64,000 nucleotides of DNA from TPA_inf: Saccharomyces (Eukaryota): the NCBI GenBank assembly GCA_000146045.2, contig BK006938.2, forward strand, positions 1,280,001 to 1,344,000, read 5' to 3'. A program made the position numbers and the translations under genes. The notes below the pieces were generated by a model that had not been told where the DNA came from, did not search any database, and worked only from the letters and a program-made list of their open reading frames with translations. Of the stretch, positions 35,326 through 39,386 are shown one piece after another; position 1 is the stretch's first letter; each line of letters opens with the position of its first letter.

Positions 35326-37773
35326 CTAATTACTGATCTGAGACTTTTGTGTTTTATAATAACAAGGTGCATAAACTACTTGAGTGATAAATTTCCCCTC
35401 ATATCTAGTAGTGCAAGCTACGCTGATTATTTCATCTCTAATACTGCTTGTCAGTAAATGGTTCAAATTCACGTGGGGTATAATATGATTTATCGCACCT
35501 TCATCCCTCTCATGTGATTCTGAATTCTGATTGCTTTGGTTTAGTATTCTGTTCAGATAGGATGAATTCAGGTATATGGGCAAGTCAGGAACTGGGTATC
35601 TACTTAGAAAAACCGCCTCTGCTGTTTCTGCATCAATATTACCGCCTTGCTGTAAAGTAGCAAATAAATCATCTTGATTACAGTCAACAACTCTATGTGT
35701 AAAGCTGGGAGGTTCTTGGGGATGCACGTCATCAGAATCTCCTTTTACAGAAATCGTAGAGCCGTCACCTATATTAAATAAATTTGGTATTTCGTTCGAA
35801 TACACCAACCTCTCAGGCTTGACCTCGGCCATCAAATCCAAACTGCTAGCCTTCAGACGTACAAATGAGTCACGCATATTTATTGAACTGGACCTACTTA
35901 AGCCTCTATAATCTGAAAACGGTGTACTTGGCCTTTCAACACCCTTAGCAGAATAGTAGGAAGATTTTCGAGAGGAAGAAGGAAATCTTTTAAGTTCCGG
36001 TCTCTTGGGCAATTCTTCATCCAGTGTTGGCTCTACTTGCGAGTCGATGTCTGCTTCGTTTCTAAATGGCTCGATCGTATGATAACCGGGCAATACTTCA
36101 AACCAGTTGACAAAATTGCCTTCTGAATCCGTAGCTGTAGGAAGAAAATTTGAGTGAGTCAATATACCATTGATGGAGAATTGCAGTCTATAAATTCCTG
36201 CAGGCAAAAAAAGATCTGGAACAAACCATTCCTTATGCACATCATCATAAACCATGCGGATCCTAGGATTTAACTGTTTTTCTGAGTCTAAACTTGCATT
36301 CTCATCCAAGGTAAGCTCTCTTTGCTCTTTAAGAGCAGAAGCAATATCCGTGCTTACTATAAAGACTTCCGTGGTTGCAGCCACGGTACCATCGTCTTTC
36401 CATTTTAGAACAACTAAAGTATTTTCGGTGGAGTTTGTTGATGATATTGAAGACATACTCGACATGGAATTAGAGTGATGCGATATTTCTCTATGCTGCG
36501 GTGCAGAGTATTGACTTTCATTGTCGTTAATAATTGGATGTAGTGGATGCAAAGGCTGCAAATTCAAACCGTTTGTTAAGATACTCTTTCTTGATTGTAA
36601 AGAATGCAAAGAAGCAAATGAGGATCTTCTCGAATTTGAAACCGACCTTATTTTTTTATTCTGGGCTTTCTTTGTCTTATTATGGTGCTTATTTAAATCT
36701 CTTTCCATCAAGGTCTTATCACCGTACAGTTTCATCATCATTTTTGCAGTAGCAGATATAGGTGCGGTAAAATCGTCGTTGGAGCCTCCCGCGTTTCCCT
36801 TGTTACGGGTGTTATTTTCAATATTTCCATTGTTATTAGCGTGGCTTATCCTTTCTGCAGTATACATTGAATTAGAGGAATTCACCCTTGAAAGACGTTG
36901 CATATCCTTTTTTAAAGCATTTTGTAAAAGAGACTGGTTCAAAACCATATCTTCACTTTGAAGTACGCCTGCTTCTGCATCTACACTATCACTGTTTCCC
37001 TCTTTATCCATTTGAGAGTTCTCAGAAAATGTTTCGTCGTTATTGAGATATTGATATTGGTATGCATGGATAGATGGTTTCTTTGAATAGGGTTGTCTTA
37101 CAGGAATATCAATGGAATCCGTCTTGGTCAAGGCGGGAAGTGATGCTGAATGCACCGATGAAGACCTCGTTGGAGAAGGGGAAGCAGTAGCTGAACTTTC
37201 TAAAAGATTTTTTTTCAAAGCTATGATGCTTGAGCGATGCCTTTCATGGTGTGGTTTGTCGTTTCTTTCATTTTCTGTTGTTTCGTCAACCATGGTGTAA
37301 TTCAAAGTAGACAGATCATCCAGATCACTTTTAGTTCGTTTGACAGTGGCCATTGATGGACCTGGGCTCAAAAACGACGGAGATTTCACCTGCTCTTCGG
37401 GTGCACCCACATCGTGATCATCACTTAAAGTCAAATTGGCCAACGTAGTGTCATTTACGTCTGCGGCAGAGGACAAAGAATAATCCTTTTTGAATAGATG
37501 GGACGGGCCCTTATCGATAGTAGTATCACTGCTCATGCGCCCATCACAATCTGTCGATGGATCGTGAGATGCAAGTAATTGCATTCTAGGGGGAATGGCA
37601 CCATTATGTTCGCTAGTATGACTGGCGCGTCTCTTATGAGTACTCTTCCTATTGTTAAACAGTTGAGAGGTTATGCTTCCCTGACGATCTTTATTGAATG
37701 CATCATGAAAATGATGTCCATGCTCCTTTTTGGTTGAATGCGATGGATCCTGAGTAGAAGGACTGTTTCCCAT
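35326..37773 (-). CDS. SIP1: Snf1 kinase beta subunit with N-myristoylation motif, glycogen-binding and ASC domains (815 aa from the MGNSPS start)
   Basis: The ATG at 37771-37773 gives MGNSPSTQDPSHSTKKEHGHHF, an MGxxxS myristoylation consensus. The C-terminal KIS/ASC region resembles Gal83 and Sip2. A second, genuine in-frame ATG lies 144 nt upstream at 37915-37917 (see findings). Confidence 0.85.
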   Translation of the reverse strand: MGNSPSTQDPSHSTKKEHGHHFHDAFNKDRQGSITSQLFNNRKSTHKRRASHTSEHNGAIPPRMQLLASHDPSTDCDGRMSSDTTIDKGPSHLFKKDYSLSSAADVNDTTLANLTLSDDHDVGAPEEQVKSPSFLSPGPSMATVKRTKSDLDDLSTLNYTMVDETTENERNDKPHHERHRSSIIALKKNLLESSATASPSPTRSSSVHSASLPALTKTDSIDIPVRQPYSKKPSIHAYQYQYLNNDETFSENSQMDKEGNSDSVDAEAGVLQSEDMVLNQSLLQNALKKDMQRLSRVNSSNSMYTAERISHANNNGNIENNTRNKGNAGGSNDDFTAPISATAKMMMKLYGDKTLMERDLNKHHNKTKKAQNKKIRSVSNSRRSSFASLHSLQSRKSILTNGLNLQPLHPLHPIINDNESQYSAPQHREISHHSNSMSSMSSISSTNSTENTLVVLKWKDDGTVAATTEVFIVSTDIASALKEQRELTLDENASLDSEKQLNPRIRMVYDDVHKEWFVPDLFLPAGIYRLQFSINGILTHSNFLPTATDSEGNFVNWFEVLPGYHTIEPFRNEADIDSQVEPTLDEELPKRPELKRFPSSSRKSSYYSAKGVERPSTPFSDYRGLSRSSSINMRDSFVRLKASSLDLMAEVKPERLVYSNEIPNLFNIGDGSTISVKGDSDDVHPQEPPSFTHRVVDCNQDDLFATLQQGGNIDAETAEAVFLSRYPVPDLPIYLNSSYLNRILNQSNQNSESHERDEGAINHIIPHVNLNHLLTSSIRDEIISVACTTRYEGKFITQVVYAPCYYKTQKSQISN

Positions 37774-38045
37774 GGCGGCTGCAACAACTATATAATATGA
37801 CAGTTCAACTTTCCAAGATGTCAGTCCACACGCAAAAAAAGAAGTGCAAATGAAAGAAACACTAGGTAAGACACCTTGTTTATGTAGGTATCCACTTGTA
37901 TCGGATATATCTACCATTGTTAATTGTCAATAGTATTCCATCAGAGACAATGGTAAAAAGACAAAAAAGGTATAATCATCGTACAAAGCGATCAATATTA
38001 CATGCTCTCATCCAACATTATGTATACTCAAGATATGTTTATATG

Positions 38046-39275
38046 CTACAGGAGCTGTCTAACCAGAGCACTCTGTAAGTCGCGAGCTTTGACTACTATT
38101 TTGCAGTCATCTGTACATTTTGCCTTGATTATTAATTCGCTGCATAAATCATCTATGTCCAACGATGAATATTTTGGTAGGGAGGAGATCTCTTCGAGAA
38201 TGTGGTAGCAAGACGCTTTTCCATTCGATATGGCGCTGCTAATGTGTTCAATTGCTTCAGATTGGGTTCGAATTGTTTTAGTATGAGAAGCAGCCACCGG
38301 AAGCACCGAAGCTAGAGATTTCTGATTCAACAGGTGGCTTGTTATTAAGTCGCATTTGATCTCCTTATTTGAACATGGTTTGGTCCCGATACACTTGCGG
38401 TTGCAAATATTATTACACTGGCTCCCTACAGCAAGGGGAAGCACGCTGGGGAATAAAGTATCATCTTCTGTCTCGTATGGAAGATACTTTTGGTCAATTT
38501 CACATTGACATGCTGACGTATCTATTTTTTCAGCGGTCAGGCGTTCAGAGTGCTGAGGAAAGTAGTTATGAATGTCGTAATCTAAAGCTTCTAGACCAGT
38601 CTGTCTATCATTGGAGACAAGATCGAGACTGAAATCTGGCATTTCACTACCATTAATACTTTCGTCACCGATGGTAACGGCACCTGTTCGATTTCCGGGG
38701 GGAGAATCCCACGAATTGGTTAAACTGGGAGCGTTCCATGAGCCTATGTTCCACATAACTTTCTCATTCTCTTGAGTGTGCGGCTGTACTTCTATACTTG
38801 TGTTCACAGTCATGTTTTCATCTGAATTAGGCGATGGCAATTCCTTTGCAGCCTTGCTAACTGCTGTACTTGTTCCTTTTTCGTTTTCCCTTTTCTGTTG
38901 TTCTTGCAGATCATCGAGGAAGGCTAATATTCTTTCATCATCAGAATTCTTAGCTCTATATTTTGTAATTTCCGACAGTAAACTTTTTAAAGAACATAGT
39001 AAAAAGTCCGTGGTAGTCTTATTCTGCGCATCTTTCTGTTCTAGTAACTCTACCCTCTCTTGCAAACTCTTCATTTTGGCTTCTTTCCTATCTCGGAACG
39101 CTCGTTGAGCTGCCCTATTCTGGGCAGTCCTCCTACTCTTAGCTTCAGAGTCAATCCTTTTTCTGCCTGGTCTGCCCACCTTCCTCTTAGGTGTTCCATC
39201 TTTATTTAGCAACATTTGCTTCTTCATGTCACCTGCTAAATATATTTGCTGACCTTTCCGAAGGATATTGCCCAT
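38046..39275 (-). CDS. CAD1: AP-1-like bZIP transcription factor (409 aa) with C-terminal Cys-rich domain
   Basis: The ORF starts MGNILRKGQQ. The bZIP basic region is SRRTAQNRAAQRAFRDRKEAKMKSLQERVELLEQ, and a Yap-type C-terminal Cys-rich domain follows (CSEL...KAKCTDDCKIV). This is YAP2. Confidence 0.9.
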   Translation of the reverse strand: MGNILRKGQQIYLAGDMKKQMLLNKDGTPKRKVGRPGRKRIDSEAKSRRTAQNRAAQRAFRDRKEAKMKSLQERVELLEQKDAQNKTTTDFLLCSLKSLLSEITKYRAKNSDDERILAFLDDLQEQQKRENEKGTSTAVSKAAKELPSPNSDENMTVNTSIEVQPHTQENEKVMWNIGSWNAPSLTNSWDSPPGNRTGAVTIGDESINGSEMPDFSLDLVSNDRQTGLEALDYDIHNYFPQHSERLTAEKIDTSACQCEIDQKYLPYETEDDTLFPSVLPLAVGSQCNNICNRKCIGTKPCSNKEIKCDLITSHLLNQKSLASVLPVAASHTKTIRTQSEAIEHISSAISNGKASCYHILEEISSLPKYSSLDIDDLCSELIIKAKCTDDCKIVVKARDLQSALVRQLL

Positions 39276-39297
39276 TTATCTTAACTGGTCGTTCCAT
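39229..39297 (-). promoter_or_regulatory. CAD1/YAP2 leader uORF2 (23 codons, MERPVKINGQYPSERSANIFSR*), out of frame and overlapping the CAD1 start codon
   Basis: The minus strand reads ATGGAACGACCAGTTAAGATAAATGGGCAATATCC...AGGTGA. It starts 22 nt upstream of the CAD1 ATG and ends 47 nt inside the CAD1 ORF in the +1 frame. This matches the described inhibitory uORF2 of YAP2. Confidence 0.75.
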
Positions 39298-39313
39298 TGC
39301 TTATATGTCGTCC

Positions 39314-39331
39314 TTAAAAGTAACACCCCAT
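39314..39331 (-). promoter_or_regulatory. CAD1/YAP2 leader uORF1 (6 codons, MGCYF*)
   Basis: The minus strand reads ATGGGGTGTTACTTTTAA, which ends 39 nt upstream of the main ATG. It matches the described short uORF1 of the YAP2 leader. Confidence 0.75.
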
Positions 39332-39386
39332 TCGTATGAAAGTATAATAGTAATTGATTATCGATTAACTATTGAAGAAACACTAT

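Follow-up and report, generated by a model that had tools for sequence, protein, structure and literature searches.

The region analysed here is a 64,000-nucleotide (nt) stretch of Saccharomyces DNA (contig BK006938.2, positions 1,280,001 to 1,344,000 of the forward strand; hereafter, the window), within which we focus on the 5' leader of the CAD1/YAP2 gene (YDR423C) and on two short reading frames (upstream open reading frames, uORFs) that start in this leader. The CAD1 coding sequence occupies positions 38046..39275 on the minus strand and encodes a 409-amino-acid (aa) AP-1-like bZIP transcription factor. We are highly confident that the element under study is the 5' leader of the Saccharomyces cerevisiae gene CAD1/YAP2, including the pair of inhibitory uORFs already characterised there. 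One argument for this reading is that the layout in the window is identical to the published one, namely, a 6-codon uORF1, a 23-codon uORF2 that overlaps the main start codon in the -1 frame, and a 157-nt leader.

The gene downstream of the uORF pair is S. cerevisiae CAD1/YAP2, as the original prediction had proposed, because its domains, its exact match in S. cerevisiae assemblies, its synteny and the names of its homologues all agree. In a domain search, the 409-aa open reading frame (ORF) was found to carry the Pfam domains bZIP_1 and PAP1, the latter being the C-terminal cysteine-rich domain. The identical protein is encoded on chromosome IV in several chromosome-scale S. cerevisiae assemblies, and homologues in other yeasts bear the names CAD1/YAP2. 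The gene order is SNX41-DYN2-CAD1-SIP1, the neighbours encoding a PX-domain protein (Snx41), a dynein light chain from a spliced gene (DYN2) and an AMPK beta-subunit protein (SIP1), and this order is preserved out to Nakaseomyces and Maudiozyma.

The minus-strand sequence across the uORF region reads ...ttcatacgaATGGGGTGTTACTTTTAAggacgacatataagcaATGGAACGACCAGTTAAGATAAATGGGCAAT... and contains both uORFs exactly as predicted from the sequence, so that the claimed span, 39229-39331, runs precisely from the end of uORF2 to the start of uORF1. uORF1, ATGGGGTGTTACTTTTAA, lies at 39314..39331 on the minus strand; read from 39331 to 39314, its codons are ATG GGG TGT TAC TTT TAA (MGCYF followed by a stop), that is, 5 sense codons plus the stop, which correspond to the 6 codons counted in the literature. 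Its ATG is located 56 nt upstream of the CAD1 ATG, in the context acgaATGg with a C at -3. uORF2, which reads MERPVKINGQYPSERSANIFSR before its stop, lies at 39229..39297 on the minus strand in the -1 frame and consists of 22 sense codons plus TGA (23 codons); its ATG, in the context gcaATGg with a G at -3, precedes that of CAD1 by 22 nt. This uORF crosses the annotated CAD1 start codon (39273..39275, minus strand), whose context is ataaATGg with an A at -3, and closes with a TGA that ends at 39229, 47 nt inside the CAD1 ORF. One nucleotide downstream of the uORF2 stop (TGAcATG) lies an in-frame ATG, that of Met17 of Cad1 (39225..39227, minus strand). A scanning ribosome would thus encounter, in order, uORF1 with a C at -3, uORF2 with a G at -3 and the annotated ATG with an A at -3. 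The uORF1 stop is separated by 16 nt from the uORF2 ATG and by 38 nt from the main ATG, and the 10 nt that immediately follow this stop, GGACGACATA, are 50% GC. Apart from the two uORF start codons, the 217 nt ahead of the CAD1 ATG hold no ATG; another appears only at 39493 (-218), within DYN2.

The last exon of DYN2 (39387..39557, minus strand; Pfam Dynein_light) is on the same strand as CAD1, and its stop codon, at 39389-39387, is 111 nt upstream of the CAD1 ATG and 55 nt upstream of the uORF1 ATG. The published leader extends further than this intergenic stretch. Additional file 2 of Cvijovic 2007 contains the entry 'YDR423C 157 uORF(6) -57 / uORF(23) -23', that is, a 157-nt leader with both uORFs; the offsets of -56 and -22 that we count from the A of each ATG differ from those in the table by a one-base numbering convention. 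In addition, the plasmid table of Munzarova 2011 (PMC3131280) lists a YAP2 5' untranslated region (UTR) segment from -101 to -9 relative to uORF1. From these two sources, we infer that the 5' end of the CAD1 mRNA is at about 39432, 101 nt upstream of uORF1, and that the leader covers 39276..39432 on the minus strand, a 5' end derived from the literature. Given the published leader length of 157 nt, both uORFs would be inside the CAD1 transcript; a transcription start site (TSS) downstream of 39314, which would leave uORF1 outside the mRNA, is contradicted by the published leader and the TSS at about 39432 that follows from it.

A consequence of this arrangement is that CAD1 and DYN2 transcripts share sequence. 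The first 46 nt of the published CAD1 leader coincide with the last coding nucleotides of DYN2 and its stop codon, and because the leader begins about 43 nt upstream of that stop codon, the CAD1 TSS and promoter are within the DYN2 gene. Conversely, the DYN2 stop is so close to the CAD1 ATG (111 nt) that the 3'UTR of DYN2 must run into the leader and uORFs of CAD1, which are on the same strand, and short-read RNA coverage of these uORFs cannot be attributed to either gene alone. The supplements of Spealman 2018 and Waern 2013, in which TSS and footprint data were sought, make no mention of YDR423C or CAD1, and CAD1 is not mentioned either in a 2025 preprint on nonsense-mediated decay (NMD) or in a preprint on truncated isoforms.

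The uORF pair is already known: since 1998-1999, it has served as a standard case of uORFs that are inhibitory and destabilise the mRNA, and it is included in uORF training sets and reviews. Papers that cite Vilela et al. 1998/1999 credit them with the finding that both YAP2 uORFs block scanning and speed mRNA decay. In the same vein, Munzarova et al. 2011 (PMC3131280) describe YAP2 uORFs 1 and 2 as blocking ribosomal scanning, with rapid mRNA decay to follow, and report, crediting Vilela 1998/1999, that a YAP2-lacZ fusion under the native leader shows no activity; in the same paper, YAP2 5' sequences substituted for those of GCN4 uORF1 allowed background reinitiation only. Elsewhere, the two uORFs are said to 'strongly inhibit production of Yap2p' (PMC6755093), and a review of the Yap family gives the same layout with uORF2 overlapping in the -1 frame and describes the decay of the YAP2 mRNA as termination-dependent. 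The reduced translation and mRNA destabilisation that had been ascribed to the pair in the window accordingly match the secondary sources on Vilela 1998/1999 (PMC3131280, PMC6755093). Finally, ribosome profiling published in 2024 shows that CAD1 translation efficiency rises 2.6-fold under sulfometuron (SM), a treatment associated with eIF2alpha phosphorylation, which the authors interpret as bypass of the inhibitory uORFs (PMC10945734).

These reports and the geometry suggest the following course of events. A 40S subunit scanning from a cap about 101 nt upstream would first meet the uORF1 AUG (39331), which is in a weak context, next the uORF2 AUG (39297), 16 nt past the uORF1 stop, and then the annotated AUG (39275). 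According to the literature, ribosomes that have translated either uORF would terminate and reinitiate poorly, and such 5'-proximal termination would accelerate mRNA decay. Because uORF2 passes through the annotated AUG out of frame and terminates 47 nt beyond it, a ribosome starting at uORF2 would, judging from the geometry, be lost to full-length Cad1 synthesis. Full-length Cad1 would then be made mainly by subunits that leak past both upstream AUGs (uAUGs), and eIF2alpha phosphorylation would partly lift the repression. The 1999 study of Vilela and colleagues is said to have found that the decay is largely UPF1-independent and that ribosomes are released more readily when the sequence after the stop is G/C-rich.

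Seven orthologous regions were compared, and an eight-way leader alignment including the S. cerevisiae window was built. The related loci come from a S. paradoxus-like Saccharomyces assembly (L001; 86% identical over 6.7 kb, a divergence that we estimate to be about that of S. paradoxus), S. mikatae IFO 1815 (L002), two strains of S. kudriavzevii (L007, strain VIN7, and L012), S. eubayanus (L013), and a S. uvarum and a S. uvarum-like assembly (L014 and L008). Across the leader, the window does not differ from four further S. cerevisiae assemblies.

The start codons of the leader differ in conservation across this sample. The ATG of uORF1 is retained by the S. paradoxus-like locus, S. mikatae, both S. 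kudriavzevii loci and S. eubayanus, 5 of the 7 related loci, and is ATT in both S. uvarum-type loci. Conservation in the leader is highest over uORF1 and the 16 nt that follow it, with 95-100% identity to the S. paradoxus-like sequence. The peptide is MGCYF or MGCYL in two species; it is frameshifted in the S. paradoxus-like locus, where a 1-nt insertion extends uORF1 to 18 aa, and in the VIN7 locus of S. kudriavzevii, where it is 19 aa long. The uORF2 ATG, for its part, is found in S. cerevisiae alone among the 8 aligned leaders, the triplet elsewhere being ATT, ATA, ATA, AAG and AGG. At the position homologous to the annotated CAD1 start, S. cerevisiae and the S. paradoxus-like locus have an ATG and the six remaining loci a TTG; the S. 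paradoxus-like ATG is out of frame and opens a 12-codon uORF, so that, of the sampled loci, only that of S. cerevisiae has this start in frame. The Met17 ATG (39227) is shared by S. cerevisiae, the S. paradoxus-like locus, S. mikatae and S. eubayanus, with AAG in S. kudriavzevii and ACA in S. uvarum.

Two uORFs are nevertheless found in both the S. paradoxus-like locus and S. mikatae. The S. paradoxus-like leader has the extended uORF1 plus the 12-codon uORF, whereas S. mikatae has uORF1 (MGCYL followed by a stop) plus a 10-codon uORF that is not homologous to uORF2 of S. cerevisiae; this second uORF, MKPSMSGWRQ (L002:2971-3003), ends in a TGA that overlaps the CAD1 start (ATGA), a stop-start arrangement. 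The pattern of two uORFs ahead of the start thus persists in S. cerevisiae, the S. paradoxus-like relative and S. mikatae, with uORF1 as the only homologous member. The entry in Cvijovic 2007 that '2/2 uORFs conserved in 3/3 species' has to be qualified because only uORF1 is homologous across the relatives. In the more distant orthologues from Nakaseomyces and Maudiozyma/Kazachstania, synteny is kept, the intergenic regions are longer, and the upstream ATGs are non-homologous.

The coding sequence itself is not intact in all of the related loci. In S. kudriavzevii, S. eubayanus and S. uvarum, the CAD1-homologous DNA matches Cad1 piecemeal, over different frames (remnants at L007:1500-2200, L012:1500-2200, L013:1030-2210, L014:1040-2200 and L008:1110-2270), and the interval from SIP1 to DYN2 has no gene call. 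Judged from these remnants, CAD1 looks like a pseudogene in the three species, which may already be on record in the literature. We also observed that Cad1 (38046-39275, minus strand) diverges unusually fast, with aa identities of 68% to the S. paradoxus-like orthologue and 56% to that of S. mikatae, compared with more than 90% and 87%, respectively, for Snx41 (40064-41941, plus strand) in the same genomes.

Several of these results, together with features of the leader as such, weigh against the reading of this element as the known inhibitory uORF pair. The uORF2 ATG is missing from all seven related loci, the length of uORF1 varies, and the uORF1 ATG is kept in S. kudriavzevii and S. eubayanus despite the degenerate state of CAD1. 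The TSS and the functional effects of the uORFs rest on secondary citations, and the literature is in conflict over one of them: YAP2 uORF1 is non-permissive for reinitiation according to the 2011 paper (PMC3131280), whereas a 2021 paper from the same laboratory lists it among the uORFs 'shown to allow efficient REI' (reinitiation; PMC8421214), both citing Vilela 1998. The statistics of the leader give no signal either. Mononucleotide shuffles yield a mean of 2.3 ATGs for the 111-nt intergenic stretch (P(>=2)=0.69) and of 3.0 for the 157-nt leader (P(>=2)=0.83), so that ATGs are enriched in neither and the two that are present are no more than expected by chance; by sequence alone, the pair is not significant. 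RNA structure in the leader does not exceed that of shuffles (z = +0.40), and an Rfam search returned no family match, just two sub-threshold chance hits.

Such values, and the lack of any relative that shares the uORF2 ATG, are what would be expected if the two ATGs were chance occurrences in an AT-rich intergenic stretch, devoid of regulatory effect. We consider this explanation barely credible. Several independent papers describe strong repression and destabilisation by exactly these uORFs, and the published reporter and half-life experiments contradict it; the response of CAD1 translation efficiency in the profiling study (PMC10945734) and the conservation of the uORF1 ATG in most of the related loci also speak against it. 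Furthermore, less than 15% of mapped yeast leaders have any uAUG, significantly below expectation, and leaders that do have one are linked to poor translation and NMD (Arribere & Gilbert 2013, PMC3668365). Two uAUGs in the CAD1 leader are notable because uAUGs are so rare in yeast leaders, and the published experiments on this leader also support function.

A different concern is that the conservation around uORF1 might mainly reflect the 3'UTR and terminator of DYN2, with the conserved uORF1 ATG as a by-product, a view that would still allow the uORFs to function. The position of the DYN2 stop favours this explanation, given that the DYN2 3'UTR has to cover the uORF region, and so does the block from the DYN2 stop to uORF1, which stays conserved even in the three species with a broken CAD1, two of which keep the uORF1 ATG. 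A part of the conservation of this block probably does belong to the overlapping DYN2 3'UTR. As the main explanation, we nevertheless regard it as unlikely: in S. uvarum, the ATG has become ATT while the flanking TTTCATACGAAT is intact, the pattern expected from relaxed selection after the loss of CAD1, and the loss of the uORF1 ATG in S. uvarum alone is compatible with such relaxation. Moreover, in published experiments the uORFs act on CAD1 expression (PMC3131280, PMC6755093).

The comparison also bears on the question of which ATG starts the CAD1 protein. Met17 (39227) could be the ancestral CAD1 start, perhaps still in use, with the ATG at 39275 a recently captured in-frame upstream ATG; reinitiation after uORF2 could then yield Cad1 without residues 1-16. 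Relative to Met17, uORF2 is non-overlapping, its stop being 1 nt ahead (UGAcAUG), and the stop-start arrangement of the second uORF in S. mikatae is similarly placed with respect to the start there. Gene callers begin the S. paradoxus-like and S. mikatae CAD1 proteins at the Met17 equivalent, an ATG that is kept in S. eubayanus as well, while the homologue of the 39275 ATG is out of frame or TTG in the relatives. The annotated codons 1-16 (39228-39275, minus strand) are the least conserved part of the locus, with nt identities of 67% to the S. paradoxus-like sequence and 39% to S. mikatae and with frame-breaking indels, and the Nakaseomyces YAP2 orthologue, too, has a short N-terminus ahead of the basic region. 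On the other side, the 39275 ATG in S. cerevisiae is in frame, precedes Met17 and stands in the best context, with an A at -3, so that leaking subunits should use it. In yeast, reinitiation is as a rule inefficient once a uORF of 22 codons has been translated. The YAP2 uORFs in particular were reported to be non-permissive for reinitiation (PMC3131280). On balance, this account of Met17 appears improbable to us.

An evolutionary scenario that accommodates both the published module and these comparisons is that the module evolves by turnover. Under this scenario, which we put forward tentatively and with more doubt than conviction, uORF1 would have been kept, and a 1-nt indel in S. cerevisiae would have fused a third, out-of-frame uORF of the S. 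paradoxus-like relative onto the coding frame, creating the annotated 16-residue N-terminal extension; a new ATG would have made uORF2, with its stop 1 nt before the ancestral start. Two forms of Cad1 would then be possible: the 409-aa protein, made by leaky scanning, and a form without residues 1-16, made by reinitiation at Met17 or by leaky scanning to it.

Our preferred reading remains that of the known CAD1/YAP2 leader with its two inhibitory uORFs. What the present analysis adds is mildly new, namely, that both uORF2 and the annotated start codon are lineage-specific in origin and that the leader overlaps DYN2. Together with Met17 as the conserved start and the apparent decay of CAD1 in three sister species, these comparative details should be modestly useful where the CAD1 leader serves as a model or as a benchmark for 'conserved functional uORFs'. 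A separate observation concerns the neighbouring SIP1 gene, in which a further 48 open codons (37774-37917, minus strand) precede the start of the 815-aa frame and extend it to an ORF of 863 aa (35326-37917); gene calls in S. cerevisiae assemblies differ accordingly, with 815 aa in L003 and 863 aa in L004 and L005.

Comparison with characterised uORF systems helps to define the CAD1 type of control. Like the CAD1 uORFs, uORF3 and uORF4 of GCN4 are short, and ribosomes that have terminated at them reportedly do not return to scanning with any efficiency. GCN4 differs in that these non-permissive uORFs are combined with the permissive uORF1/2 and long spacers, which results in delayed reinitiation, whereas in CAD1 the spacers are 16 and 38 nt, the YAP2 5' sequences give background reinitiation, and the uORFs are tied to mRNA decay. 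Delayed reinitiation of the GCN4 kind at CAD1 was considered and rejected in view of these short spacers and of the reported background level of reinitiation (PMC3131280). The paralogous AP-1-like factor YAP1 also has a short uORF, of 7 codons, in a long leader; it allows leaky scanning as well as reinitiation, and its effect is minor, unlike the strongly inhibitory uORFs of YAP2.

The mammalian ATF4 gene offers a parallel to uORF2. Vattem and Wek, in 2004, reportedly described an ATF4 uORF2 that overlaps the main start out of frame and a repression that is relieved by eIF2alpha phosphorylation. As with CAD1 uORF2, the out-of-frame overlap means that translation of the ATF4 uORF2 excludes initiation at the main ORF; in ATF4, however, delayed reinitiation depends on a uORF1 that permits it and on a long spacer, an architecture that is absent from the CAD1 leader. 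The uORF of CPA1, which encodes the arginine attenuator peptide (AAP), resembles those of CAD1 in being inhibitory, at about 25 codons, and CPA1 translation efficiency likewise goes up under SM treatment (PMC10945734). The CPA1 uORF acts via a conserved nascent peptide, whereas the uORF peptides of CAD1 are not conserved over the seven related loci, and peptide-dependent stalling of the AAP type at CAD1 was rejected on this ground. The closest match is the YAP2-type uORF pair of S. cerevisiae CAD1/YAP2 itself, as attributed to Vilela et al. (1998 NAR 26:1150; 1999 EMBO J 18:3139): the locus and the layout are identical, with no difference in S. cerevisiae, and to this published module the present comparison adds that, within the species sampled, uORF2 and the annotated start belong to S. 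cerevisiae alone.

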